Source: Planctomycetota bacterium
Lineage (GTDB): Bacteria > Planctomycetota > Planctomycetia > JALXBF01
Direction: 5' to 3'
Length of the DNA: 64,000 bases
Assembly: GCA_026991575.1 (NCBI GenBank)
Contig: JALXBF010000049.1
Span: 1 to 64,000 of the forward strand
The position numbers were made by a program, and so were the translations under genes. This document shows positions 7,024 through 22,395 of the stretch, in pieces; position 1 is the stretch's first letter, and each line of letters opens with the position of its first letter. The notes under the pieces were generated by a model, which did not search any database, had not been told where the DNA came from, and saw nothing but the letters and a program-made list of their open reading frames with translations.

Positions 7024-8088
7024 ATGGCGCTTTGGGTCATTCGCACGCTGTTCCTGCTGATCTGGACCGGACTTGGCTCCTACTTGGCATGGCGCCTGGA
7101 GCTGGGCGCATGGCAGACGGTCGGTGTCGTCTTGCTGGCGATCATCATCGGTGTGACGGTGATCGCCATTGACGTGCTGGTGCCGCGGAAGAAGATTGGC
7201 ATTTTGTCGGCGATCTTCTTCGGGCTGTTGCTGGGCACGATCATGGGCCAGCTGATCTGGTCGGCAATCCGCCCGGCTCTGTGGTACGTGGAGCAGACGC
7301 TGGAGCTGCAAGCGCGTGCACAGTTTGAAACGGTAGTCGAGCCGCTGGTTAACCTGCTGCTCAGCTCGCTGCTCTGCTATCTGGCGATCAGCTTCATCTT
7401 ACAGACGCAGGATGACTTTCGTTTCGTGATCCCGTATGTCGAATTCAGTCGGGAGCTGCGCAGCAGCCGGCCACTGGTGGTTGACACCAGCGCATTGCTG
7501 GACGGGCGGATTGTGCGGCTGGTGCAGGCGGGCCTGTTTGACACGACGATCATTGCGCCGGCGTTCGTCTTGGGTGAGTTGCAGCGGTTGGCCGAGAGCC
7601 CGGACCGTGCCGAGCGGGTGCGCGGCCGTCGCGCGCTGGAGCTGGTCACCGAGCTGCGCAACGATCCTCATGTGTCGATTGAGACGCCGGACGTGGAGCC
7701 GCCCGAGTTGCGGCACGTGTTGGACCCGGCGCAGAAGCTGGTCCGGTGGACAAGGATCGTTCACGGCAAGCTGGTCACCGTGGACGCCAACCTGGCAAAG
7801 CTGGCGCGGGCCGAAGGCATCGATGCGCTGAACCTGAATGATGTCTCCGATTCGCTCCGGCCGCAGGTGCTGCCGGGCGATCGGGTCCGTGTCCGGTTGG
7901 TCCGTTCCGGCGACCAGCCCGGTCAGGGCGTCGGCTACCTGGATGACGGTACGATGGTAGTGATCGAAGACGGCCGGGCACACATCGGCAAAGAGGTGGA
8001 AGCGACGGTCACCAGTGTGATCAATACGCATGCTGGAAGGATGGTTTTCGGCCGTATCGAACCCACTCGCGCAACCCAACGGGCATGA
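7024..8088 (+). CDS. Membrane-anchored PIN/TRAM domain protein (YacL-like)
   Basis: Four N-terminal TMs, VDTSALLDGR PIN start, QGVGYLDDGTMVVIE and GRMVF TRAM motifs. Confidence 0.9.
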   Translation: MALWVIRTLFLLIWTGLGSYLAWRLELGAWQTVGVVLLAIIIGVTVIAIDVLVPRKKIGILSAIFFGLLLGTIMGQLIWSAIRPALWYVEQTLELQARAQFETVVEPLVNLLLSSLLCYLAISFILQTQDDFRFVIPYVEFSRELRSSRPLVVDTSALLDGRIVRLVQAGLFDTTIIAPAFVLGELQRLAESPDRAERVRGRRALELVTELRNDPHVSIETPDVEPPELRHVLDPAQKLVRWTRIVHGKLVTVDANLAKLARAEGIDALNLNDVSDSLRPQVLPGDRVRVRLVRSGDQPGQGVGYLDDGTMVVIEDGRAHIGKEVEATVTSVINTHAGRMVFGRIEPTRATQRA

Positions 8089-8883: not shown

Positions 8884-10737
8884 ATGAGCCAGCGTCGGAA
8901 CGCGCAAGACGGGGTTGCCAAGGAGCAGCTCATCGTCGAGTACGTCGATGGCACGCTGTCTCCGGAACTGGCCGCGCAGGTGCGCCGCCATATGGAAAGC
9001 GACGCAACGTTCCGCGAAGAAGTGTTGATCCAGCAGCGTGTGAAAGAACTGCTGGCCCAATACCGGCCCCAGGCCCAGCTGCCCCGCTCTGCCGAACGGC
9101 GCATCCTTGGTCGCCTCCAACTCATCGGACGCAGCTACCACCTCTGGCACGAAGTGCTCCGCGCCGCCGCAGAGGACACCGCTGGTGATAGCACCGCTCA
9201 GCACATCGAAGTCACCGCCCTCAGCGTGCTCGTCGACTACTACCTGGATGGCGATTTGCCGGAGGAGCTCCGCGAGCAGTTTGAGCAGCAACTTGCCATT
9301 GACGAGGCACTCCGACGAGAAGTCGAGCAGATGCGCTGGCTCCAGGAAGTGGCGCTGCCCGCCTGCGTCCAGCAGAACTATGAGCCCGCCGGACATGCGC
9401 TGCGCGAGCGGGTGCTGCGCCAGCTGGATAGCGTCGCCCTCCGCAGCAGCAACCGGTCCGAGCAGACGTCATCGTGGTGGCGCCGGGCCGCCGCGGCCGC
9501 AATCTTGCCGTTGCGGCGCTACCGGCCCCAAATGGCGATCGCAGCCGCGGCATCAGTGCTGATTGCTTCGGCTGCTTTCTTCATGCTCCGCTCTTCCCCG
9601 CAAGCCCCCGAAACGCACTCGGTCGACAGGCCACCCGGTACAGCACACACTGTGCCTCCACAGACCGGCGCCGATGCCCCGTTTTTCGAGGGTTTCGTGT
9701 CATCTGGTCCGGAAACCATCCCCGAAGGGGAGCTCGAGTTCCTTCAGCTTAAGGAGACCGGCCAGCTCTGGAACGGCTTCGGCCCGATCCGCGAGCAGCT
9801 GGCTCAGATGGGCCACGGTGCGCTTAGCCGCGTGACCGAGATTGCTGCCAGCCTGCCCTGGCCTCGGTTTGGCACGCGCCGTGAAGCCGCCGGAGCGGGT
9901 TCCGCCGAGAGCGCGCGAGCGCCCGCTTCCGTCGGCAGATACCGGCTCCGGAACCTCTCGACGCTGCTCAACAGACACTCTGCCTCACCGCGCCCGGCGA
10001 AGGAACGGTCCGAGAAGAACGTGGAGGAAGAACTTCTAGCAGCTGCGAAGCACGTCGGACGAACGATCGCATGGGAGGACGACAGCGGCGACCTTCACTG
10101 TGCCGTCGTCGTCGACGCGGTGCAGGCCGACGAAACAATCTCTTTGCTGTGCCGACGCTATGACCTGCAGCTCACCGAAATGGACGACACCGATGCTGAC
10201 AGCGCCGGTAGACTGATGGTGCTGGAGCTGCCCGCAGAGAAAGCCGAAGAGTTGATCAACGAGATGCAGGAGCGGTTCCAGCGGCTACTAACGCAACGGA
10301 CCGCAAAGAACTCGGCGCCCGGCAGTGCAGAAAGCAAGCGAACGAAGGCACCTCAGCCAGAAGTCGTCGAACATCGCGCCCGGAAACGGCCAGCCGATGT
10401 CGATATCGCCCCCACAGCTCTCAACGGCGTGCACGCCGTTACGTTGCCAATCCGATCCGACGAACGGAACGCATTGCTGCGACTGCTAGCCGTCCTTGAC
10501 CAACACGTGACACGAAGTGCGCGCCGTGCCCTCCGTCGGCTGCCCTTCGGTCGTCCAGCGCCCACGCGTCGCCGACCGCCAGAGGAGCACTCCGGAACAG
10601 GTAAGCCCAGCGAGGAACAGCAGAAGAAAGGCAGCAGACGCAAGAGCGACCGAGTCGTTGTTTACCTGTACTTCGTGTTCGAGCAACCTCGCGACACGAA
10701 CGACGAGAGGAAAACCACCCCGCAGCCCAAACGTTAG
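8884..10737 (+). CDS. Putative transmembrane anti-sigma factor with two tandem anti-sigma-like domains
   Basis: Follows the ECF gene; YVDGTLS and YLDGDLP repeats; one TM (AAAASVLIASAAFF); long C-terminal region. Confidence 0.7.
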   Translation: MSQRRNAQDGVAKEQLIVEYVDGTLSPELAAQVRRHMESDATFREEVLIQQRVKELLAQYRPQAQLPRSAERRILGRLQLIGRSYHLWHEVLRAAAEDTAGDSTAQHIEVTALSVLVDYYLDGDLPEELREQFEQQLAIDEALRREVEQMRWLQEVALPACVQQNYEPAGHALRERVLRQLDSVALRSSNRSEQTSSWWRRAAAAAILPLRRYRPQMAIAAAASVLIASAAFFMLRSSPQAPETHSVDRPPGTAHTVPPQTGADAPFFEGFVSSGPETIPEGELEFLQLKETGQLWNGFGPIREQLAQMGHGALSRVTEIAASLPWPRFGTRREAAGAGSAESARAPASVGRYRLRNLSTLLNRHSASPRPAKERSEKNVEEELLAAAKHVGRTIAWEDDSGDLHCAVVVDAVQADETISLLCRRYDLQLTEMDDTDADSAGRLMVLELPAEKAEELINEMQERFQRLLTQRTAKNSAPGSAESKRTKAPQPEVVEHRARKRPADVDIAPTALNGVHAVTLPIRSDERNALLRLLAVLDQHVTRSARRALRRLPFGRPAPTRRRPPEEHSGTGKPSEEQQKKGSRRKSDRVVVYLYFVFEQPRDTNDERKTTPQPKR

Positions 10738-10929: not shown

Positions 10930-11961
10930 TCAGGGGCGCAGCAGCAGTTCGGGAGCAAAGTATCCGTACACGTAGTGGAAGCGCGGGCTGAAAAGACTGG
11001 TTCGCTCTGCACCGTGCCAAGGCTGGCGTCGCATCAACAGGGTGGATAACTGGAGCTGAAACAGGTCGGTCAGTCGCCAGCCGCGGCGCAGCTCGACGAC
11101 ACGTAGCCGCTCCAGCCCGGTCAGCTCGCGGACACGCTCGATCGCATCGTCCAGGTACCCGATGCGGTCGATGAGCCCGTGCTGGAGCGCTTCGTCTGCA
11201 ACGTATACGTCGCCGTTGGCTATGTGCGGCAGCTGCTCTTCCACAATCCGATCCCTTCTGCCCTCACGCACCACATCCAGGAACGTCTGGTAATAGTGCC
11301 GTATCAACTGCATGAACCGCTTTCGCTCCTCGTCCGTTAGCGGTCTGAACGGTGATCCGGCATCCTTCAACGGGCCGCTCTTGAACGTTTCCACTTGCAC
11401 CTGCCACTCGGACAACAGCCCGGAGACGTTGAAGAAGGTCATGCGGACACCGATTGATCCGACCAAAGCGGTCGGTTCGGCGATCACTTCATCCGTGGCA
11501 CATGCCAGGTAGTAGGCGCCCGATGCACCGAGGCCTTGGATAAACGTCACGACTGGAAACGCCGTGTTCGATGTGTCCTGCCGCTGGCGTTTGTACTCCA
11601 ACAGTTCGTGGTACATGCGGTCCGTGGCAGTGACCGTCCCGCCAGGGCTGTCCACTCTAAGGAGCACGCCTCGTACGCGCTGGTCCTTTTCCAGCCGGCG
11701 TAGTGTGCTGCGGAGCGCGGAAGCGGAAGAGGCAGTCAGCAGGCCGTTGATCGGTATGATGACGAGTTTGTCCTCCGCGTCTCGCTCACCGCTGACGAAA
11801 ACCTCACGGTACGGTCTGCCTGTTCGTTCCTGAACGAGGTTGAACAGAACGGCGTTGGTGAGCAAGGAGACAATCAGCAGCAACGCCAGCAGGCGTCGTC
11901 GCCACCTGCCGCGAGGTCTGCCCGCCTTTCCGCCTTCACGGTCGCTGGCCAACTCACTCAT
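10930..11961 (-). CDS. sppA: Signal peptide peptidase SppA (S49, 36K type)
   Basis: RVDSPGG, ASGAYYLA (catalytic Ser), VGSIGV, KSGPLKD (Lys), GLIDRIG; N-terminal TM. Confidence 0.92.
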   Translation of the reverse strand: MSELASDREGGKAGRPRGRWRRRLLALLLIVSLLTNAVLFNLVQERTGRPYREVFVSGERDAEDKLVIIPINGLLTASSASALRSTLRRLEKDQRVRGVLLRVDSPGGTVTATDRMYHELLEYKRQRQDTSNTAFPVVTFIQGLGASGAYYLACATDEVIAEPTALVGSIGVRMTFFNVSGLLSEWQVQVETFKSGPLKDAGSPFRPLTDEERKRFMQLIRHYYQTFLDVVREGRRDRIVEEQLPHIANGDVYVADEALQHGLIDRIGYLDDAIERVRELTGLERLRVVELRRGWRLTDLFQLQLSTLLMRRQPWHGAERTSLFSPRFHYVYGYFAPELLLRP

Positions 11962-12521
11962 TGCTGTTCCGGTCTGCCTTCTCCGCCGTTCTGATCTTCG
12001 TTGCGGGTCTGCTGGATCTGCGGCGGTGCCGCGTCCGGGAACGCCGGCGTACCGTACGGCACAGGAGGTTCGAACACGTCAGCCGGTTCGATGTGGTAGA
12101 CGCGCCAGGTGTCGTTCTCTTGTTGCAATCGGTAGGCCTGCCGTTCCCACGGCCTACCTTTGTATACCCGTTCTACGACGATGCGGATTCGGCCGTTGTC
12201 TAGTGTCTCTGTGAGATCGTGGCGGATGGCACGCCCCACGACGCCTTCAAGGCTTTGCTTCAGGTAACTGCGGAACGCCTCCTCACCGCGCTCACGCAGC
12301 TCATTGGCAAGCCTCTGGCGCAGGGTTCCGGTGAAGCAGTCCAGATACTCGGTCACGTCGCCGCGTGCTGCCGCTTCATAGAGTAGGTCGATGCGTTCCT
12401 CCGGCGTGCGGGGCGTAGCTCGGCCCAGGCCACGCCCGGCCATCACGGCGGCCACCGCCAGTACCGCCACCGTCAGCGCGGCAGCAATCGCCTTATGCGA
12501 CCGGTTCGCACCCCGACTCAC
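11958..12521 (-). CDS. Hypothetical single-TM protein, possible NTF2-like fold
   Basis: N-terminal TM, LYEAAARGDVTEYLDCF helix pair then beta strands ending WRVYHI; start and stop overlap both neighbours. Confidence 0.65.
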   Translation of the reverse strand: MSRGANRSHKAIAAALTVAVLAVAAVMAGRGLGRATPRTPEERIDLLYEAAARGDVTEYLDCFTGTLRQRLANELRERGEEAFRSYLKQSLEGVVGRAIRHDLTETLDNGRIRIVVERVYKGRPWERQAYRLQQENDTWRVYHIEPADVFEPPVPYGTPAFPDAAPPQIQQTRNEDQNGGEGRPEQQ

Positions 12522-13489
12522 CGGATAGCCTCTTGCTGCTGAAGCTCTTGCTGGTCACGTCGTTCTGGTTGTTCCCTGTTCTCGATCGGTCTCAGCACCC
12601 CGATATCGACTGGCTTGTGCCGGTCGTCGACCACGATGGTTCGCCGCACGTTGGCCAGCGCGCGGCCCAGGGTGTCGAAGAATAGACGGGCGGTGACCAA
12701 CGACGGCTGTTGGCGGTACTCGTAGAGCAGCTTTCGAAACCGATCCGCTTCTGCCAGCGCGCGGTTGCGCAACTCGGCCGCTTCGGCTCGGGCGCGCTGC
12801 CGGAGAGCATTGGCCTGGGCTCGTGCGGTGAGCCGCTGCTGGTCGGCATAACGGCGCGCCTGCACAACCATCGTTTCCGCCTCTGCGCGGGCTGCGTTCA
12901 CATCGTCGAATGCGTCCTTCACCTCCGCAGGCGCCTCCACTACAGGCAGCGCGATGTCCCGGACCGCGATCCCTAACCCTTGCCGTGCCACCCGCCGCTG
13001 CAACAGCGCCAGTGCCGCAGCGGCAATCTCGGCCTTGCCCGTGGTCAACACGTAGTCGATCTGCCGCGTCGCCAGAACCTCGGACAAAACGCTTACGGTC
13101 AAGCTCGCAAGCACCTTCTCCGGCTGGCTGGTGGCAAACAGGTACGCCACCGGGTCGGAGACCGAGTACTGCACCACGGCCTGCACGACAACCAGGTTTT
13201 GATCGCCGGTCAGGAACAGAGCCAGCGGTGAGGTGGCCGGCATCCCGAGCAGTCGGTCTGCCGCCCCCCTCATGCCCACCGTTAGCCGCTTCACTTCACG
13301 CGGTTTGATGCGATCCACTCGATCCAATCCCCATGGCAGGCCGAAATGTAACCCCGGCTCGCGCAGCGGTGGGTCAAAGCGGCCGAAGCGGCGTACCACG
13401 CCGACTTCGTTCTCAGCCACCGTATAGATGCCCGTTGCGAGGTAGGCAGCCAGTGCGACGATCGCCAGAGCCAGCATCCAACGACTCAT
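12518..13489 (-). CDS. hflK: HflK-like SPFH/band 7 protein
   Basis: GVVRRFG, PGLHFGLPW, LTGDQNLV, VKDAFDDVNAA, EADRF. Confidence 0.85.
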   Translation of the reverse strand: MSRWMLALAIVALAAYLATGIYTVAENEVGVVRRFGRFDPPLREPGLHFGLPWGLDRVDRIKPREVKRLTVGMRGAADRLLGMPATSPLALFLTGDQNLVVVQAVVQYSVSDPVAYLFATSQPEKVLASLTVSVLSEVLATRQIDYVLTTGKAEIAAAALALLQRRVARQGLGIAVRDIALPVVEAPAEVKDAFDDVNAARAEAETMVVQARRYADQQRLTARAQANALRQRARAEAAELRNRALAEADRFRKLLYEYRQQPSLVTARLFFDTLGRALANVRRTIVVDDRHKPVDIGVLRPIENREQPERRDQQELQQQEAIR

Positions 13490-14910
13490 GGCTTCCCTCC
13501 GTCACCGCCAGCGGCAGCCTGACCGTCGGCTGCTACCGCCGGCACTTCGGGTTTGGACCCCGCCGGCTCCCCGTTTCCGACGCCGGCCGTAGCCTGCCGC
13601 TCGGTTCGACTCCCGATGGTCGCACCCGATGCGAGTTCGTGGACGGTAGTCAGCAGTCGCATGAGGGGACTTTCTGAGGAAAGCACCAGGACAGCCTTCT
13701 CGTTGAGCATCTTCTGGTACGTTTCCAGCGTCACCAGGAACTCGTAGAAGGTGGGATCTTCCGCGTGCGCTTCATTGGCCACCTTCATTGCTTCTGCTTC
13801 CGCGCGCGCTCGGATCTCGGCAGCATCACGCTCAGCACGCGCCAGCAGCTCGCGCACCTCCTTGTCCGCCTGACTGCGAATCGTCTCGGCGATGCTCCGG
13901 CCTTCGGCCCGCGTCCGGTCTGCCACCGCCTGCCGTTCTGTGCGGATCATGTCATAGATGGCGGAACGGACGGCGGTCGGATGATTGAATCGCTTGATCC
14001 GAACGTCAACGACCTCAATGCCATATTGCTCGTACGCGCTCTTGCGGACCGCATCAACGAGCTTCTGTGCCAACTCATCCAGGAGCACGTCCTCAGGGTT
14101 CAGGCTCACGAACTGCTGCAGCTTCATCTGGCCCACTTCCGCCCGGACCAACGACCAGATGCGGTCTTCGAGTCGGGCCTCAGCCGCTTCGATCGTACCG
14201 ATCGCACGCAGGTAGCGGAGGATAGCGGCTTCGTGTGCCTGGCGCGCCTGGTCCGAGCCCACTGCCACGCCGCTCATCCGTGCCGCAAACTCCGGCGTAG
14301 GCAGCCGCCAGCACGCGAACCACTCGACATTCAGGTTCTGCCCTACCTCCAGACGCTCACTCTGCTGTCCCGCGCCCGGCTCCGCCTCGGGCCGGCTGAG
14401 TCCGATCTGGAACACCCGTCTGGCACCACCCTGGGTAAGCATTTCGCGTCCGGGCGGATTCAGCAATTGCAACCGGCGATCCAGGCGGCGCACCGTCTCA
14501 AACGGCCACTTGAAAGCCAGCCCAGGCTCCACTAGCAGCCGCACCGGCTTGCCGAAAAGCGTAACGTACACGTATTCGGTCTCGTCCACGAAAACGACCG
14601 AGCGAACGAGCAGCACGGCCACGAGTGCCAGGGCAAATAGGCTCAGCGCCACGCGCCGCAGCCGTGTGAGGTTCAGCCGATACGGCCCGGCACTCTGCCA
14701 GTCCTCCCACCAATCCTCGTGATCGTGATCATGGTCATGATGGTGGTGCTCGTGATGCCCATGGTGGTGATGGCCTGGGTCGTGCCGGTGGCCTTCAGGA
14801 CCGTGGGCATGATGGTGCCCGTGGTCACGAGTGTGCGAGCCGCTGGCGATGTCGTCGCGATGCATCTGGGTTTGCTCCGCTAGTGCGTTCAGCACACGAC
14901 CAAGCCGCAC
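13486..14910 (-). CDS. hflC: HflC-like SPFH protein with His-rich N-terminal extension
   Basis: FGKPV, PGLAFKWPF, YGIEVVDVRIKR, MIRTER, DPTFYEFLVTLETY; alternative start ATG 14865 has a GGAG upstream. Confidence 0.85.
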   Translation of the reverse strand: MRLGRVLNALAEQTQMHRDDIASGSHTRDHGHHHAHGPEGHRHDPGHHHHGHHEHHHHDHDHDHEDWWEDWQSAGPYRLNLTRLRRVALSLFALALVAVLLVRSVVFVDETEYVYVTLFGKPVRLLVEPGLAFKWPFETVRRLDRRLQLLNPPGREMLTQGGARRVFQIGLSRPEAEPGAGQQSERLEVGQNLNVEWFACWRLPTPEFAARMSGVAVGSDQARQAHEAAILRYLRAIGTIEAAEARLEDRIWSLVRAEVGQMKLQQFVSLNPEDVLLDELAQKLVDAVRKSAYEQYGIEVVDVRIKRFNHPTAVRSAIYDMIRTERQAVADRTRAEGRSIAETIRSQADKEVRELLARAERDAAEIRARAEAEAMKVANEAHAEDPTFYEFLVTLETYQKMLNEKAVLVLSSESPLMRLLTTVHELASGATIGSRTERQATAGVGNGEPAGSKPEVPAVAADGQAAAGGDGGKP

Positions 14911-14922
14911 GCGCGCGATGGA

Positions 14923-17900
14923 TCACTCTTCCGGAGGCGGTGGCGGCGGCACGGCCAGCCGCTCGATCGTCTCCTGCAAGAGCCGGCCGAGTCGGGCGAC
15001 GGTGTCCGTGTCGGCCAGCCAGAGCAGCCGCCGACCGGTGCCTGATTGATCAACGATGACCATCTCGCGGTCAGCTACCGCCTGTGCGAGCGTGCGGTGG
15101 TAGAGCCTCAAGGCGGACACGTGCGGCGCGACGCGGTGGCCCGTTAACCTGGCCCGAAACAGCGTCGCTTCCACTTGAGCGCGGGTGACCGTGATGACAG
15201 CCTCCGCCTCGGCCTCGTTCAGGATCCGCCGCGCCGTGCCTTGCAACTGCTGGCGGAGAATGCCCCACAGCGCCTCAACCGGATCACCCGCCACGTTGGC
15301 AGCCACAAGGCGTTCGCTGGCCTGTTGTCCTGCCGAACGAATCAGGCGCTGGACGCGGTATGCTTCCGCTTCGATTTCCAGCCGCTCCCTTTCCTTGTAC
15401 GCCCGGGCAAGTTCACGGAACGCATCGACAACTTCCAGCGGAGGGTGCACGTCCTGCAGTGTCACGGCAACGACCTCTAACGGCAACCCGTAGCCCTCTA
15501 GCCGCTGCTGGATTCGCTCTGCCGCGGCCAGCTCGATCGCGTGCCGGCCGCGGGTCAAGACCGCATTGAAAGACTGGGTCGCCGTCAGTTCCCGGAGCAC
15601 CTCCTCGGCCACCACCCGCACGGTGTCCTCCACGTAGCGGACACGATACAGGTAGCGGAGCACGACGTCCTTGAGCCGATCGGGAGCGATGTGCACCGGG
15701 TCACCGACTGCGACGCGGTACTGGACGGTGGCGTTCAGTTCAAGCAGCCGGTTATCACCGGAAAAGACCAGCGACTCGTCCTCCACCCGCTCCAGCATCC
15801 CATCCCGGTGCGGGCTGTCCCATTCGATTGGCAGCATGCTCTGTTGCAGCGGTCCGGACCGTCGGCGGAACCCGATTTCGACGGCGCGCACTCTAGCGAC
15901 TGGCACCCGGTCGACCAGTTCCAGTGGTTGGGGGAGTCGCCAGTGCAGACCGGGCTGCAAGACGGCGTGGAACTTGCCGAAACGGCGTACGGCACCGATC
16001 TCATCCGGTCCGATCACGGTCAGCCCGCTGGCCAGGTACGCGGCGGCAGCCGCCGCCAGCGTCGCGGCGGCGAGCCGACGACGGCGGTACCAGCCCCAGG
16101 CGACAGCCGGGGTGAAAAAGTCTGCCACGCGCATCACCCAGCGGGCGGCTGCCCGTTCCATCCGTCCCAGTGCCGACCGCTCCCACTTCTCAAACCAGAG
16201 CAGTCGGACAGCGTTGCAGAGCACCAGGAACGAGCCGATCTGATGCGTGATCGCAGCTCCGATTGGGCCAAGCACTTCTTCGGCCGAGAGGAGGATGGCG
16301 CCGGTGTTCAGGCCGAAGGCAAACACAAGGATGTTCTGCCGGATCACGCGCATCACGGCGCGGCTAAAGCGGATCAGTTCGGGCAACGGCTTCAGTGGCT
16401 CACCCATCAGCACCAGGTCGCCGGCCTCCGCGGCGATGTCTGTGCCGACGCCACCGAGTGCCAGACCCGCGTCGGCCACGGCCAGGGCGGGGGCATCGTT
16501 GATGCCGTCGCCAACCATGCCCACTCCGGGCAAGGTGCGTCGGATCCTCCGTTCGCGCAGCCGTCGCCGGTCTCTGTCCCGCACTTCCATGCGCCACTGT
16601 TCGATCCAGCGTGCCTTGTCCGCCGGAAGCATTTCCGCCTCGAACCGGTCAACCCCAACCTGCTCTGCGATGCGGGCCGCCACAGGCCGGCGGTCGCCAG
16701 TCAATAACACGATTTCGCGGATGCCCAGGTGTCGCAGCTCGTGGATGACGTCGGCGGCTTCGGGCCGCACGCGATCTTCAACCCCCAGGGCCCCGACAAC
16801 CTCGCCCTCCACGGCCACCAGCAGCGGACTCATGCCATGCGCTTCCAGCTCCTCCAGCGTGGCTATGGCTGCCTCGACGCCGCGCACGCCAAGCTCCTGC
16901 ATCAAGCGTCGGTTTCCGATGACAACTCGGCCGACGCCGGGCACGGTTCCTTCGATGCCTGCACCGGGATGGACCTTGAAGTCGACAACTTCCGCCAACG
17001 TCAGGCCTCGTCGCTGGGCTTCGGAAACGATCAGCTTCGCGATGTGGTGCTCACTGAGCGACTCGACGGCCGCTGCCCACGCCAGGAGCTGGTCCTCGGT
17101 CACGTCGCCCAGTGGCACGACGCGGCCCAGGTGAAGCTTGGCCTGGGTAAGCGTGCCGGTCTTGTCGAACGCCAGGTAGCGGACGGTGGCCAGCCGCTCC
17201 AGCGCTTCGCTGGCCTTCATGATCACCCCCCGGCGCGCCATCCAGGCCATGGCCGCCATTGCGGCTGCCGGTGTTGCGAGGATGAGGCCACATGGGCAGG
17301 CGACGACCAGAACGGCAAGAGTGGGCATCCAGTTCAGGTTTCTCCAGGAGGGAGCCCCCCAGTTCGTGTAGATCAACGTCAGGACCGCGGCGGTCAGCAC
17401 GGCGGGCAGGAACATTCGGGCATAGCGATCGGCCAGGCGTTCGATCGGTGCCTTGCGTGTCTGGGCCTGCGCCACGAGCTTGATGACCTGGCCCAACGTC
17501 GTTTCTTCGCGCACCCGCTCGGTACGGATCCGAACGGCTCCGTACTGGTTTAGTGCTCCGGCGTAGATCTTGTCCCCCTCCCCTACGTCCACCGGCAGGC
17601 TCTCGCCAGTCAGCGCGCTCTGATCCACCGTGGTGCGGCCTTCGATGACGACGCCGTCGACCGGCACGCGCTCCCCGGGACGAACGATGACGACGTCTCC
17701 GGGTTCGACCTGCTCGATGGGCACTTCGACTTCCGCCCCGTCCCGCAGAACGCGGGCGGTTCGCGGAGCAAGTTCAAGGATCTTGCGCAACTCCCGGTGG
17801 GCACGCTTGAACGCTACCGCCTCCAAGGATTCGCCCACCATCGCGATGAATGCCACCTCGGCCGCCACCCAGTATTCGCGCAGCAGCAACGCAGCGAGCA

Positions 17901-18165
17901 TGGCGATGGCCAGCGCGATGTCGGCACCGATGTTGCCTTCCAGGATGCCGACCAACGCCGCATAGACGATGCGAGCCCCCCCGATCAAGGCGGCAATCAG
18001 CGCAAGGTCGTAACCGAACGGTTGTTGCAGCGTGGTCCAACCAAGCCAGCGGAACAGTAGGTCTGCAGCGATGAGCACGCCGAGCGTGGCAGTGAGCAGA
18101 TAGAGCGAGCGGAAGGATGGAAGCTCCAGCGCTTCCCGCGGATCCACGCTATGCTGCATGTGCAT
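14923..18165 (-). CDS. Heavy-metal P1B-type ATPase fused to a C-terminal HflK-like SPFH domain
   Basis: TGES, VVACPC, DKTGT, SEHH/HP, TGD, GDGINDAP; then TM, GAVRRFG, PGLHWRLP, QDVHPP, VVDAF. Confidence 0.92.
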   Translation of the reverse strand: MHMQHSVDPREALELPSFRSLYLLTATLGVLIAADLLFRWLGWTTLQQPFGYDLALIAALIGGARIVYAALVGILEGNIGADIALAIAMLAALLLREYWVAAEVAFIAMVGESLEAVAFKRAHRELRKILELAPRTARVLRDGAEVEVPIEQVEPGDVVIVRPGERVPVDGVVIEGRTTVDQSALTGESLPVDVGEGDKIYAGALNQYGAVRIRTERVREETTLGQVIKLVAQAQTRKAPIERLADRYARMFLPAVLTAAVLTLIYTNWGAPSWRNLNWMPTLAVLVVACPCGLILATPAAAMAAMAWMARRGVIMKASEALERLATVRYLAFDKTGTLTQAKLHLGRVVPLGDVTEDQLLAWAAAVESLSEHHIAKLIVSEAQRRGLTLAEVVDFKVHPGAGIEGTVPGVGRVVIGNRRLMQELGVRGVEAAIATLEELEAHGMSPLLVAVEGEVVGALGVEDRVRPEAADVIHELRHLGIREIVLLTGDRRPVAARIAEQVGVDRFEAEMLPADKARWIEQWRMEVRDRDRRRLRERRIRRTLPGVGMVGDGINDAPALAVADAGLALGGVGTDIAAEAGDLVLMGEPLKPLPELIRFSRAVMRVIRQNILVFAFGLNTGAILLSAEEVLGPIGAAITHQIGSFLVLCNAVRLLWFEKWERSALGRMERAAARWVMRVADFFTPAVAWGWYRRRRLAAATLAAAAAAYLASGLTVIGPDEIGAVRRFGKFHAVLQPGLHWRLPQPLELVDRVPVARVRAVEIGFRRRSGPLQQSMLPIEWDSPHRDGMLERVEDESLVFSGDNRLLELNATVQYRVAVGDPVHIAPDRLKDVVLRYLYRVRYVEDTVRVVAEEVLRELTATQSFNAVLTRGRHAIELAAAERIQQRLEGYGLPLEVVAVTLQDVHPPLEVVDAFRELARAYKERERLEIEAEAYRVQRLIRSAGQQASERLVAANVAGDPVEALWGILRQQLQGTARRILNEAEAEAVITVTRAQVEATLFRARLTGHRVAPHVSALRLYHRTLAQAVADREMVIVDQSGTGRRLLWLADTDTVARLGRLLQETIERLAVPPPPPPEE

Positions 18166-18329
18166 GGGCAGTGGACTCCCAGAGACCGCACCGGCTTGAC
18201 CGCCACACAGGACCGTGGCGCACGCTCTCGTCCGTTGCCCGCCAGCTCTGCACGTCGGCTCCGCGAGCGCAGCGGAGCGTGCCGTTCCGGCAGCCGGCGG
18301 TGCTGGTTGCCAAGGGCAGGCGTCGGCTT

Positions 18330-18358
18330 AGCGTACGGATGCGCCGAATGCCGTGCAA
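18330..18358 (-). promoter_or_regulatory. Putative sigma70 promoter of the ATPase-SPFH operon
   Basis: Minus strand TTGCAC-17 nt-TACGCT, ~165 nt upstream of the start codon. Confidence 0.4.
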
Positions 18359-18373
18359 CGCGCAGAGCGAAGC

Positions 18374-19189
18374 TCAGGGAAAGTAGCGACGACTCTGGTA
18401 GACCAGCCGGCCATAGGCCTCGATGCGCGCCCGCTCCTGGTAGGTCACCGGCCGCCAATCGTCCAGAAGCGTGAGGTTCTCCATCAGCTCCCTGCGGTTC
18501 CCCGGCGCCATGAGGACCACGGCCACGTCCGGGTGGGACAGAGCGTAACGATAACATTCTACCGCACTCAACGGTCGATCCCGGCCGTTGCCCGGCAGTG
18601 GCCGGATCAAGTGGCCCCAGCGCAACGCGGTGAACACGACGACGGGTAACCCCATCGCCCGCGTCACTGGGAAAACGTCTCGCTCCGCACCCCGGTGCGC
18701 CGCGTTGTACCGCACCATCAGCAGATCCAGGGCACCGCCGCGAGCAAGCTCCGCAGCAAGCCGGCGGTTATGCGTCGTCAGGCCAATCATCCGCACCGCT
18801 CCGGCCCGCTTCAGCTCCGTTAGCAGTCGGTGGGCCCCTCGGCGCGGCTCCATGATCTGCTGCCACTCTTCCATGCGTTGAACGTAGTAGTACGTGACGA
18901 CGTCCACATAGTCGGTACCCAGCTTCGTGCAGATCGTGTCAAACTCGCGAGCGGCCTCATCGTACGCACGGGCCTCAAACTGAACCGCCACGCAAACGTC
19001 ACGCCTTCTGCTGCCAAGGTTGCGCACAGCGCGCTGCAGACCGTCCTCATGACCACACCAGTTCCAGTAGTTCACCCCACGCTCCAACGCCAACCACACC
19101 CCCGCCTCATCCACGGCCGCATTGCCGCGCGTGGCCAGACCAAGCCGGCAGACTGTCCCGCATTGTCCCAGTGCTACGACGCGTTCCAT
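18374..19189 (-). CDS. Aldo/keto reductase family protein
   Basis: LGTDYVD, GAVRMIGLTTH, MVRYNAAH, ELMENL. Confidence 0.8.
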   Translation of the reverse strand: MERVVALGQCGTVCRLGLATRGNAAVDEAGVWLALERGVNYWNWCGHEDGLQRAVRNLGSRRRDVCVAVQFEARAYDEAAREFDTICTKLGTDYVDVVTYYYVQRMEEWQQIMEPRRGAHRLLTELKRAGAVRMIGLTTHNRRLAAELARGGALDLLMVRYNAAHRGAERDVFPVTRAMGLPVVVFTALRWGHLIRPLPGNGRDRPLSAVECYRYALSHPDVAVVLMAPGNRRELMENLTLLDDWRPVTYQERARIEAYGRLVYQSRRYFP

Positions 19190-19374
19190 GGTGCCTCCGC
19201 TCAGCCAACCAGGCGCGCATCGTACGGCAGCCAGGCACCACTTGCCTGCACCGAAGAAGGCACGTTAATTCTGGTATGCTGCAGTACGTATCCGCTGTTC
19301 GGTGCAAACTCGACGTTCCTATGCGAACGCGGACCCCGCCACGGCCAGACTCTCATCGGTTTGCGGAACTGAAG

Positions 19375-22300
19375 ATGAACCGGCATACCATGCTGTTTCT
19401 TTCCTGCCTCACGCTGCTGCCCCTTACGCCACTTGCTGCCCACGGTTCGGAGAGGTCGACGGCAGCGGGAGCCGTCGCCAAAGCACCACGGCCACCCCTT
19501 TCGCCCACCGCCGCGACTGCGGCGTTTCAGATTCAGGATGGCTACCGTGTCGAGCTGGCGGCCTGTGAACCGGACGTCGTGGACCCAACGTTTGTGGCGT
19601 TTGATGAAGCCGGACGGATGTGGGTCGTGGAGATGCCGGGATATCCGACTGGCGGCCCGGACGGCAAAGGACCGAAGGGACGCATCAAGATCCTGACCGA
19701 TCCCGACGGCGATGGCCGCTACACACTTGCCAGTGTCTTCGCCGACAATCTCAGCTACGTGCACGGCGTCCAACCGTGGCGTGGCGGCGTGATCGCGGCT
19801 ATGGCACCGCACATCGTTTACCTGGCCGACAACGATGGCGACGGTCGCATGGACAGCAGCGAAGTCTGGTACACTGGGTTCTCGACAACCAATCCTCAGC
19901 TCTACGTCAACACGCCCACATTCGCCTACGACAACTGGATCTATGTGGCCAACGGCCTACGCGGCGGGAACGTCCGGGACGCTCGTAAGCCGTCGGCGGT
20001 ACTGCTGTCGATCCGGGACAGGGACTTTCGCTTCCAGCCACAGACCGGCGAATATGAGGCTGTGGCCGGTGGTGCCCAGTACGGCCTGAGCTTCGATTCC
20101 TGGGGCAATCGCTTCATCTGCTCCAATCGAAACCACATTCGGCACGTTGTCATGGAGCTGCATTACCTGGAGCGAGTCCCCTACTTGCCGGTGACGCGGC
20201 CAGTGCTGGACATCCCAGACCACGGAGCCGCGGCCAGGCTGTTCACCATCAGCAGCAACTGGACCACGTCCAACCTGCACCGCGGCACGTTCACGGCAGC
20301 GTGTGGGTTGTCGATCTACGTGGGCGACTTGATGCCCGAACTGGCGGGCAATGCCTTCGTCTGTGATCCGACGGCCAATGTCGTGCACCGCGACCTGTTG
20401 ACCCCCGCCGGTGTCACGTTCGTCGCCACCCGTGTCCCGACGGATCGCGAATTCCTCGCCTCACGCGACGATTGGTTTCGACCGGTGCACACCACTACCG
20501 GGCCTGACGGGGCGCTGTACATCGTTGACATGTACCGGGCCGTCATCGAGCACCCGGACTTCATGCCCCCCGAACTGAAGAACCGGCCGGACCTGTACTC
20601 TGGCAACCGCCTGGGACGCATCTGGCGAATCGTGCCGGAGAACCGGCCGGGCAAGCCGGTGCGCCCGTTGCCGCACGATCCAGACCGGCTCATTGAACTG
20701 CTCGGCCACCCGAACGGGTGGGTTCGGCGTACGGCGCACCGGCTGCTTCTGCAACTCGGCCCCCGCGACAGCGAACAGCTCCTTCGCCGGGTTGCTCGTC
20801 AGGCCCGGCCACCGGCGCGCATGCACGCGCTCTGGGTACTGGAAGGGACGGACCTGCTGACCGAAGAAGACGTCCTCGCGGCCCTCGACGCGAAGGATCC
20901 CCATCTGGTGGAGCACGCCATCAAGCTGGTCGAGCGTCGGTGCAGGCCCGTTACCAACAAGACCGGAGTTCGGCTGCCGGAACCCGTGTGGTCGCAGGCA
21001 CGGGCTCGGATCGTGCAGCTTCTTGATCACCGCTCCGTACGCGTCCGCTACCAGGCACTGCTTACGCTCGGCTACTTCCCGGAACACGTCCATATCAAAC
21101 GATTCGCGGCGGCGCTTGCGCGTGACGGTGCCGATCCGTGGCTGCGGCTGGCCGTCGCCTCAGCAGCCGGCAAGCAGGCCTGGCGGCTCTTGAGGGCGTT
21201 GTCTGTGCTCAAGAGGTGGCACTCCGCCGACCCGGACACGCGTCTGGCGATACTTGAGCTGCTTGGCACGTTGATCGGCGGTGCCGGTGACGAGGCGCCG
21301 GTGAGGGAAGCGTTGACGGCAGCGGTACGCGGCGAGTTGGGCATAGAACGACAGGAGCTGATCGTCTTCACCGCAGGCATCGCCAGCGGGCTAGCACGAC
21401 GCAGACGCTCGCCCAGAACCATGCTCGGGGCGCCGTGGGCAGCACCGCTTGCCGCTATTCTGCTGAGCTACGCCCACGACGTCGATCCGAAGCAGCCGCC
21501 GAGTAAGGTCACCACCGAGTTGATCCGGCTGCTCGGCTGGCTGCCGGACGAACAAGCGGCAAGACGGCTCGCTTCATGGATCGAAATGACCGACGCGAAC
21601 ACCCAGTTCCGTGCCGCCGCGATTCAGGCGATTGGGCTGCACCGGGACGAGCAAGCGGTGAGCGTCTTGCTGGGGCGTTGGAAAGCGCTTTTGCCGGCCG
21701 AACGACGCGCGGCTGCCGCGGTCCTGCTGCGGAACCGGAACCGCGCCATGAGACTGCTGGAAGCAATCAAACGGGGGCAGGTGGCTGCCACGGAACTGGA
21801 CAAGGCGCGGCTCCAGCAGCTTCGCAACTACCCGGACCCCACGGTGCGGGCCGAGGCCCGTCGCGTCCTCGCACAGCTTCGCCCGGCCGATCGTCAGAAG
21901 GTGATCGAGCAGTACCGGGTTGCCCTGAAGCTTGAGGGTAACTTCCAGCGCGGAAAGGAGATCTTTCGCCACAAGTGCGCGAGCTGTCACCGAGTGGCCG
22001 GAATGGGTGCGGACGTCGGCCCGGATATCTCCGACACCAGGATCCGCTCGGCTGAGTCGTTGCTGACGGACATTCTGGATCCGAACCGCGCCATTGATGC
22101 CAACTATGTCAACTACGTCGTGCTCACCAGAGACGGCCAGGTCTATACCGGAATCATCGCGGGCGAAACCGCAACCGCCATCACGCTGGTGCGGGGGGCC
22201 AACGAGAAGAGCACGATCCTCAAGGAGCAGATCGAATCGATCCGGTCCACGGGCCAGTCGCTGATGCCGGAAGGTTTCGAACAGGAGTTGACGCCGCAGG

Positions 22301-22395
22301 ATCTGGCGGACTTGATTTTCTTCTTGAAGAACTGGCGTTATCTGGAATCGTCCAAAGAACCCGGCGCGCCGCCGGTACCGGGCGTGAATCGCTAG
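19375..22395 (+). CDS. PVC-type heme-binding CxxCH protein (membrane-bound dehydrogenase-like beta-propeller, HEAT-like repeats, cytochrome c)
   Basis: Signal peptide, FDEAGRMWVVEM, DTDGDG-like repeats, FRPV...GPDGALYIVDMYR, CASCH, SLMPEG; start set to ATG 19375. Confidence 0.9.
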   Translation: MNRHTMLFLSCLTLLPLTPLAAHGSERSTAAGAVAKAPRPPLSPTAATAAFQIQDGYRVELAACEPDVVDPTFVAFDEAGRMWVVEMPGYPTGGPDGKGPKGRIKILTDPDGDGRYTLASVFADNLSYVHGVQPWRGGVIAAMAPHIVYLADNDGDGRMDSSEVWYTGFSTTNPQLYVNTPTFAYDNWIYVANGLRGGNVRDARKPSAVLLSIRDRDFRFQPQTGEYEAVAGGAQYGLSFDSWGNRFICSNRNHIRHVVMELHYLERVPYLPVTRPVLDIPDHGAAARLFTISSNWTTSNLHRGTFTAACGLSIYVGDLMPELAGNAFVCDPTANVVHRDLLTPAGVTFVATRVPTDREFLASRDDWFRPVHTTTGPDGALYIVDMYRAVIEHPDFMPPELKNRPDLYSGNRLGRIWRIVPENRPGKPVRPLPHDPDRLIELLGHPNGWVRRTAHRLLLQLGPRDSEQLLRRVARQARPPARMHALWVLEGTDLLTEEDVLAALDAKDPHLVEHAIKLVERRCRPVTNKTGVRLPEPVWSQARARIVQLLDHRSVRVRYQALLTLGYFPEHVHIKRFAAALARDGADPWLRLAVASAAGKQAWRLLRALSVLKRWHSADPDTRLAILELLGTLIGGAGDEAPVREALTAAVRGELGIERQELIVFTAGIASGLARRRRSPRTMLGAPWAAPLAAILLSYAHDVDPKQPPSKVTTELIRLLGWLPDEQAARRLASWIEMTDANTQFRAAAIQAIGLHRDEQAVSVLLGRWKALLPAERRAAAAVLLRNRNRAMRLLEAIKRGQVAATELDKARLQQLRNYPDPTVRAEARRVLAQLRPADRQKVIEQYRVALKLEGNFQRGKEIFRHKCASCHRVAGMGADVGPDISDTRIRSAESLLTDILDPNRAIDANYVNYVVLTRDGQVYTGIIAGETATAITLVRGANEKSTILKEQIESIRSTGQSLMPEGFEQELTPQDLADLIFFLKNWRYLESSKEPGAPPVPGVNR

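Follow-up and report, generated by a model that had tools for sequence, protein, structure and literature searches.

As far as abstracts and excerpts of the published work go, the nearest homologous system to the gene cassette described here is HflK/HflC-FtsH of E. coli, and in function the cassette comes closest to the PacL-Ctp effluxosome of M. tuberculosis. In the E. coli system, a K-type SPFH protein is paired with a C-type one, and each consists of an N-terminal transmembrane (TM) helix followed by a periplasmic SPFH domain and coiled coil. In the mycobacterial system, P1B-ATPases depend on co-encoded single-TM scaffolds that cluster and stabilise them, and the PacL1 scaffold carries a His-rich metal-binding motif, DLHDHDH (excerpts of PMC13460109). 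The cassette lies on contig JALXBF010000049.1 (C49) of a Planctomycetota bacterium (assembly GCA_026991575.1), and the whole stretch analysed, positions 1 to 64,000, is referred to as the window. The listing of open reading frames (ORFs) places five co-directional ORFs on the minus strand at 10930-18165, as the first-pass annotation of the window had it. They encode a P1B-type metal ATPase fused to an HflK-like SPFH domain (designated K'), an HflC-like SPFH protein (C2), a free HflK-like SPFH protein (K2), a TM-anchored protein of 187 aa (p187) and SppA. The genome that holds the window is designated G000, and its relatives G001 upward.

The SPFH part of the cassette resembles E. coli HflK/HflC in that both K2 and C2 score above the NCBIfam cut-offs for hflK and hflC, respectively (K2, TIGR01933, 187.6 bits against 159.4; C2, TIGR01932, 142.7 bits against 134.4) and in that the K' tail is modelled alongside C2. 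It differs in having three paralogues rather than two, in the fusion of one K-type subunit to a transporter, and in its gene order, C then K. Furthermore, K' contains an insertion with a W-x3-H motif and falls below the hflK cut-off (148.0 bits over residues 716-948, against 159.4), and a canonical hflK-hflC pair coexists in the genome. The likeness to PacL is a functional analogy only. The DLHDHDH motif of PacL1 resembles an HDHDHDHED-type tail of C2, but the PacL proteins, as they appear in the excerpts, are DUF1490 proteins with cytoplasmic domains, are not SPFH homologues and are not fused to the pump. DUF1490 was not matched by any of the five cassette proteins in a Pfam scan. No paper on a fusion of an SPFH domain to an ATPase or to a cation diffusion facilitator (CDF) was found in the literature searched, and papers beyond that library may exist. 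The gene architecture is conserved across phyla, the three paralogues co-occur strictly, and the layout is repeated with CDF exporters. The cassette probably encodes a dedicated three-paralogue SPFH assembly of the HflK/C type (K', C2 and K2), in which the metal-efflux P1B-ATPase is a covalent subunit.

The ATPase-SPFH fusion and its distribution

The first gene of the cassette (14923..18165, minus strand) encodes 1080 aa, in which Pfam finds E1-E2_ATPase (residues 131-312), Hydrolase (330-565) and Band_7 (717-935). The P1B family model TIGR01525 is passed with 553.3 bits, the cut-off being 346.25. The ATPase core (aa 1 to ~663) is followed by a cytoplasmic linker helix (~665-693), a ninth TM helix (TM9, ~695-718), and the SPFH domain with its coiled coil (717 to ~1040). 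A full-length AlphaFold2 (AF2) model built on a 66-sequence alignment, with a mean predicted local distance difference test score (pLDDT) of 82.7 and a predicted template modelling score (pTM) of 0.63, contains eight core P1B helices, helices at 665-693 and 695-712, the SPFH strands and long coiled-coil helices. The second of these two helices corresponds to a hydrophobic helix at 700-718, directly ahead of the SPFH domain. Since the eight core helices leave the end of the pump in the cytoplasm, TM9 would bring the SPFH domain to the periplasmic side, which is where HflK has it. The C-terminal TM helix plus HflK-like domain, which the first-pass annotation had put at ~370 aa, is thus borne out with a length of ~385 aa. 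The K' SPFH and coiled-coil tail spans 14926..16017 on the minus strand (Band_7 match at C49:15361-16017).

In the membrane-proximal part of its SPFH domain, K' has an insertion of ~20 aa with the W-x3-H motif (IEWDSPH, aa ~780-786). Most fused tails have it, as do the K'-type proteins of ~600 aa described below, and it is not found in K2, in canonical HflK, or in K proteins that are unlinked to the fusion in one family of relatives (f7).

When the tail was searched for among proteins of similar total length, 59 of 61 other proteins had ATPase domains plus Band_7 (55 with both ATPase families and four partial), and one had Cation_efflux plus Band_7; the source names include Pirellulales and Bryobacteraceae. 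Among 40 genomes related to that of the window, 16 gave a match across the junction with a junction-spanning query, and the fusion is present in seven of the 401 genomes of an even phylum sample, its own genome included. A scan of 185,579 species genomes with one acidobacterial tail gave 184 relatives; the acidobacterial counts given here refer to the best 80 loci, mostly metagenome-assembled genomes (MAGs) of Acidobacteriota. At these loci, a fused ORF of more than 900 aa is present in 68, cut by the contig end in eight and split in four. The P1B-ATPase plus Band_7 architecture, first noted in this window, is thus found in other genomes (16/40 relatives, 68/80 acidobacterial loci).

An assembly, frameshift or gene-calling artefact would account for a gene in pieces, as it is at the four split loci (L059, L064, L074 and L109, two or more ORFs each, possibly through frameshifts or sequencing errors). 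However, the ORF is uninterrupted in 55 full-length database clusters, 16 relatives and 68 acidobacterial genomes, with the linker and TM9 conserved. Because the fusion recurs in many independent assemblies, an artefact has next to no probability. Identity of 64-67% to the acidobacterial tail was seen at L066, L082, L093 and L098, in records of Nevskia soli, Verrucomicrobiia, Acidimicrobiia and a Gammaproteobacteria MAG, where either gene transfer or mis-binning is possible. No conserved flanking genes were found around the 80 acidobacterial cassettes, the largest flank cluster covering 19/80 loci with Pfam matches that are unrelated or none.

A profile of the tail was also run against 1.84 billion representatives, and the following figures come from the best 150 matches. 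Forty-five of these have a length of 987-1152 aa, and in them the match begins between residues 630 and 740. A Pfam scan of 48 proteins of 547-873 aa assigned Cation_efflux plus Band_7 to 19, an N-terminally incomplete ATPase plus Band_7 to 27, and Band_7 only to two. On metagenome contigs, a CDF::K-like gene is followed by C2 and then K2 in 9/9 CDF-fusion loci with room for them, and in two of these an ATPase gene lies upstream as well. About 68 of 80 metagenome loci contain a plain K-then-C pair without a fused exporter; they had matched via the SPFH part only and were set aside.

An unfused variant of the cassette was found in three relatives (G015, G009 and G017, loci L024, L025 and L026, respectively). 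Here, co-oriented genes encode an ArsP_1-like permease, a K'-type protein of ~600 aa, C2, K2 and a P-type ATPase of 646-651 aa. The N-terminal ~270 aa of the ~600-aa proteins contain 4-6 predicted helices and gave no Pfam match at E <= 0.01; the Pfam scan of this part ruled out that they are CDF fusions. At L024, the cassette is flanked by a MoxR-type AAA gene upstream and a gene for a NicO/DsbD_2-like membrane protein downstream.

Association with C2 and K2

The gene for C2 (13486..14910, minus strand; 474 aa from GTG) is followed by that for K2 (12518..13489, minus strand; 323 aa, N-terminal TM helix 6-24). Start and stop codons overlap by 4 nt at 13486-13489, 12518-12521 and 11958-11961, and the gap between the ATPase stop and the C2 start is 12 nt (GTG at 14910) or 57 nt (ATG at 14865). 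As homologues of C2 start with MHR, the ATG at 14865 is the more likely start. The three overlaps and single short gap agree with the tight coupling of five co-oriented genes reported in the first-pass annotation.

Both partners follow the fusion in 70/70 acidobacterial loci with at least 2.2 kb downstream. Among the 16 fusion-bearing relatives, C2 adjoins the fusion in 11, and K2 does so too in nine of these; the exceptions are G003, where the contig ends, and G033, where K2 is not adjacent. The remaining five all belong to family f7; their fusion gene has neither partner beside it, and a C-then-K pair of the C2/K2 type is encoded elsewhere in the genome.

A tree of 59 SPFH sequences (quick IQ-TREE run, LG+G4, SH-aLRT supports in brackets) places all 15 fused tails on one side of a branch as a single clade (94), whose sister is the SPFH domain of the three ~600-aa proteins from the unfused cassettes (89). 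Fifteen of 18 C2-type sequences, made up of 11 adjacent C2 and four unlinked C proteins of f7, fall into a clade (91) that is distinct from canonical HflC (100), and the ten adjacent K2 proteins cluster with four unlinked K proteins of f7 (81). The family groupings run parallel in the K', C2 and K2 subtrees. Given that the main C2 clade and the K' clade are separate in the tree, orthology of the cassette to canonical hflK-hflC was rejected.

HflC matches in the 40 relatives were classed as C2-type if they scored higher with the C2 query from the window than with the canonical HflC query from the same genome. So defined, C2-type HflC is present in 19/19 relatives with K' (16 fused and three of the ~600-aa type), compared with 0/21 without it. 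Four of these 21 have only canonical-type HflC, and the other 17 (G005, G010, G012 and 14 others) have no match at E <= 1e-8 with either query. HflK/C is thus seemingly dispensable in much of the class.

In a complex model of C2 with the K' tail, the two lie side by side along the coiled coil with an ipSAE of 0.68, compared with 0.00 for the best of three controls; contact agreement between runs is at least 96% and partner pLDDT at least 76. The ipSAE mark used is reached by 116/157 solved complexes and 2/215 mismatched pairs. The model indicates likeness, not binding. The proposal of the first-pass annotation that the fused domain forms one system with the neighbouring hflC and hflK is supported by the single clade of the tails, the 70/70 and 9/9 loci, the 19/19 against 0/21 distribution, and this model.

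The tail may instead act in cis only, in microdomain targeting or autoregulation, the neighbouring HflC- and HflK-like genes then belonging to an independent general HflK/C complex. The five f7 relatives in which the fusion is alone in its neighbourhood would fit. However, the same five genomes encode a C2/K2-type pair elsewhere, none of the 40 relatives has C2-type HflC but no K', the layout is kept in all the acidobacterial and CDF-fusion loci with room, and the three subtrees show parallel family groupings. Action in cis alone is considered very improbable.

Elsewhere in the window's genome, a canonical hflK-hflC pair lies beside rho at C64:14419-16513 (hflK 248.3 bits, hflC 184.1 bits), and two ftsH genes (C33 and C110) and two further P1B-ATPases are encoded. 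The five-gene operon is therefore regarded as an extra system, since the canonical pair, a 67K-type SppA and two other P1B-ATPases are found outside it. The window has no ftsH, hflX or hfq, as the first-pass annotation had stated; in the genome, hflX is on C118, and hfq was not found.

An alternative is that K', C2 and K2 still work with FtsH, the fusion either delivering the pump to FtsH or shielding it from FtsH, as part of regulated turnover or quality control. FtsH is the sole partner named for HflK/C in the abstracts consulted, and two ftsH genes are available in the genome. The Band_7 genes of G018 are limited to the fusion and a single C2/K2-type pair, and that pair would have to serve any HflK/C role there. 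Moreover, stabilisation of bacterial metal transporters against degradation is known, as judged from excerpts of PMC13460109. On the other hand, a separate canonical hflK-hflC pair is kept in G000, G001, G002 and G004, C2-type HflC is found only together with K', 17/40 relatives do without any HflC match, and no ftsH lies near any annotated cassette. Continued work with FtsH is regarded as unlikely, and the dedicated assembly is preferred.

The pump, p187 and SppA

In the ATPase, DKTGT (334-338) and CPC (290-292, in TM4) are invariant across the 66-sequence alignment. CPC is present in TM4 of all but three of the full-length fusions listed, and those three are probably mis-hits of the regular expression. 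TM5 has FGLN, with Asn at the ligand position, and TM6 has THQIGS, the family consensus being HQxxS with HEFAS in a few members. An HMA domain was not found in the pump by the Pfam scan.

The known subgroups are marked by YN in TM5 and MxxSS in TM6 for P1B-1 (CopA-type, Cu(I)), Lys in TM5 and DxG in TM6 for P1B-2 (ZntA-type, Zn/Cd/Pb), and SPC in TM4, HEGxT in TM6 and only six TM helices for P1B-4 (CoaT/CzcP-type, Co/Zn). Whole-protein sequence scores are nearly equal for CopA (328 bits), sCoaT (313) and ZntA (300). In structure, the pump part of the AF2 model is most like ZntA (4umv/4umw) and sCoaT (PDB 7qbz), with template modelling scores (TMt) of 0.89 and 0.86, respectively, and less like CopA (0.76). 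The TM5-6 segment is closest in sequence to sCoaT, the His of HQxxS being aligned with that of HEGST.

Membership of P1B-1 was rejected on FGLN and THQIGS in place of the YN and MxxSS typical of CopA. The ZntA Lys and Asp are likewise lacking, being replaced by Asn in TM5 and His in TM6, and the ZntA model NF033775 gave 349.6 bits against 1240, which speaks against P1B-2. The likeness to P1B-4 is partial: only the His of HQxxS is aligned to sCoaT, TM4 has CPC rather than SPC, and there are eight core helices instead of six, two extra ones being N-terminal. Judged by these motifs, the set of CPC, Asn and HQxxS fits no characterised P1B subgroup among those compared.

C2 has a His/Asp-rich cytoplasmic tail of the HDHDHDHED type, with 22 His in the 90 residues ahead of its TM helix (90-108). 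A His-rich segment is found on C2 in G000, G001, G002 and G004, and on the ATPase N-terminus in G004, G035, G039 and G011. In Acidobacteriota, it occurs on K2 (6/78), on C2 (5/77) or in the linker between the pump and TM9 (8/75). A metal-binding tail able to sit on any subunit would be in keeping with proteins brought together on the cytoplasmic side of a single complex. The pumps and C2 also have similar N-termini: MHMQH, MHREI and MHREH in pumps, and MHRDD, MHRGD, MHRET and MHNES in C2 (window positions 18151-18165 and 14851-14865, minus strand; loci L011-L027). The similarity may reflect a shared metal-binding or regulatory motif.

Judging by the TM motifs (CPC in TM4, HQxxS in TM6) and by the His-rich tails, a divalent metal such as Zn, Co, Ni or Cd is a likelier substrate than Cu(I). 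Against this stand the Cu model TIGR01511, which is barely passed (400.1 against a cut-off of 397), the annotation of relatives of the fusion as Cu+-exporting ATPases in the source databases, and the derivation of the pumped metal solely from motifs.

The p187 gene (11958..12521, minus strand) encodes a predicted periplasmic protein of 187 aa with one TM helix. It matches no Pfam family at E <= 0.01, and SnoaL_2 (16.6 bits) is below its cut-off. The AF2 model (pLDDT 84.3) has an alpha+beta cone in addition to the TM helix, and its tail is flexible; all of its Foldseek matches in the PDB are to NTF2-like structures, though weakly so (best E 2.9e-4, TMt 0.56), and the ESM Atlas gave unnamed clusters only, plus leads to DUF4864 and DUF4878. 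Homologues of p187 are present in 56/67 acidobacterial loci with at least 3 kb of room, mostly directly after K2. The idea that p187 is lineage-specific in the way SppA is was overturned by these homologues, and, from this sequence conservation, p187 is a conserved fourth component in Acidobacteriota. The p187 family has a conserved C-terminal VPYGTP motif.

The last gene (10930..11961, minus strand; 343 aa) encodes SppA of the 36K type (S49), with an N-terminal TM helix and a predicted periplasmic protease domain. It passes TIGR00706 (178.6 bits against 155.45) and matches Peptidase_S49 with 137 bits. Aligned positions in B. subtilis SppA match the GASGAYY Ser and the GPLKD Lys, which presumably form the SppA active-site dyad. 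Stomatin-NfeD operons, such as Pyrococcus PH1511/PH1510 and E. coli QmcA-YbbJ, likewise combine an SPFH gene with one for a membrane-anchored serine protease of the ClpP fold. In contrast, the protease here is an S49 SppA found in only three examined cassettes, and the SPFH proteins encoded with it are HflK/C-like rather than stomatins. Assignment of SppA as an NfeD was rejected (NfeD1b_N 23.9 bits against a cut-off of 40; no match to the NfeD C-terminal domain in Pfam).

In the first-pass annotation, SppA would take the protease role in the system, and conserved synteny of hflC, hflK, the 187-aa gene and sppA was named as a check. The synteny holds for hflC and hflK (70/70 acidobacterial loci) and largely for the 187-aa gene (56/67), but not for sppA, which is adjacent in G000, G001 and G002 and in none of the 80 acidobacterial loci, the CDF-fusion loci or the other Planctomycetia cassettes retrieved. 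SppA is therefore considered a lineage-specific addition, and its role as the system's own protease was not upheld in general.

It could still be the resident protease of the SPFH cage, in an NfeD-like role, or process a component such as the C-terminal extension of p187. The sppA gene overlaps the p187 stop by 4 nt, is retained in all three Planctomycetia cassettes that have p187, is an extra copy given the 67K-type SppA on C130 of the same genome, and has the aligned Ser and Lys, whose active-site roles are presumed. In the three Planctomycetia proteins, all beside SppA, the C-terminal end of p187 (11958-12040 in the window) runs 8-28 residues past VPYGTP, compared with 1-3 residues in 28 acidobacterial proteins, none of which has SppA beside it. 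As SppA always accompanies the extended p187, it may trim the extension. Yet the distribution of sppA and its S49 rather than NfeD type speak against a protease role in the cage or cassette, which is held to be quite unlikely.

The cassette is separated by ~208 bp (18166..18373, minus strand) from the stop of an aldo/keto-reductase-like ORF, and this segment is the presumed promoter region. A sigma-70 consensus scan found no site within it, and the promoter/terminator scan was uninformative, with one promoter-like site, inside the C2 gene, against 0.9 expected. Upstream, on the opposite strand, a 1074-aa protein (19171-22395) has DUF7133, HEAT repeats and a C-terminal cytochrome c domain. Also on the plus strand, a 617-aa ORF (8884-10737) that converges on the end of sppA has an N-terminal putative zinc finger, zf-HC2, of the anti-sigma-factor kind, and a 354-aa ORF (7024-8088) has PIN and TRAM domains.

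Proposed assembly and its meaning

In the proposed assembly, the eight-helix pump would end in the cytoplasm, and the linker helix and TM9 would bring the SPFH domain into the periplasm in the topology of HflK. K' would alternate with C2 as HflK does with HflC, and K2 would occupy the K positions that are free of a pump. The ring would hold or cluster the pump in a defined membrane patch, serving its stability, local lipid environment or quality control. The His/Asp-rich cytoplasmic tail of C2 would supply in trans the metal-binding domain that the ATPase lacks. p187 would be a fourth, periplasmic component, and SppA an accessory acquired in its own lineage.

Several points weigh against this assembly. 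Co-assembly of K', C2 and K2 is predicted here from genes and models, and the C2-K' model may owe its score to memorised structures, since HflK/C complexes have already been solved. The periplasmic placement of the SPFH domain derives from helix counting and the analogy with HflK. The C2 and K2 proteins of the unfused cassettes (three each) fall outside the main C2 and K2 clades and form clades of their own. The genomes of the relatives are not independent, and the C2-type class is set by relative bit score, with a small margin in family f7 (e.g. 76.4 against 65.3 bits in G008). The His-rich tail occurs in only 16/80 acidobacterial loci, and a 31-member profile found p187 in no Planctomycetia cassette other than those of G000, G001 and G002 when the Planctomycetia loci retrieved and the whole own genome were scanned.

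A more far-reaching version of the dedicated assembly is possible, but on the whole doubtful. It would be a self-contained, FtsH-independent SPFH nanocompartment with the client as part of its wall. A closed periplasmic dome would arise from C2 in alternation with K' or K2, and several pumps would discharge into the membrane patch below it. The W-x3-H loops and p187 would receive or hold metal in the lumen, the His-rich cytoplasmic tails would feed the pumps, and SppA, in its own lineage, would mature p187 by removing the C-terminal extension.

The effect of SPFH rings (HflK/C, prohibitins, stomatins and flotillins) on the membrane proteins that they enclose is debated, and it is seldom easy to say what their clients are. 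In the present case, evolution has joined the client, which is a metal pump, to a cage subunit at least twice, in two unrelated exporter families, and two dedicated partner subunits are kept in strict co-occurrence with the fusion. As a compact system of three or four genes, the cassette is suited to co-purification, cryo-EM and genetics, and offers a natural test of the effect of a scaffold on a membrane protein. It also suggests a wider distribution than is known for scaffolded platforms of metal efflux, the only ones described to date being those of the mycobacterial PacL proteins, which are unrelated. If the closed, FtsH-independent cage is real, no earlier SPFH cage would have combined a defined role in transport with a client fused to it at the gene level.

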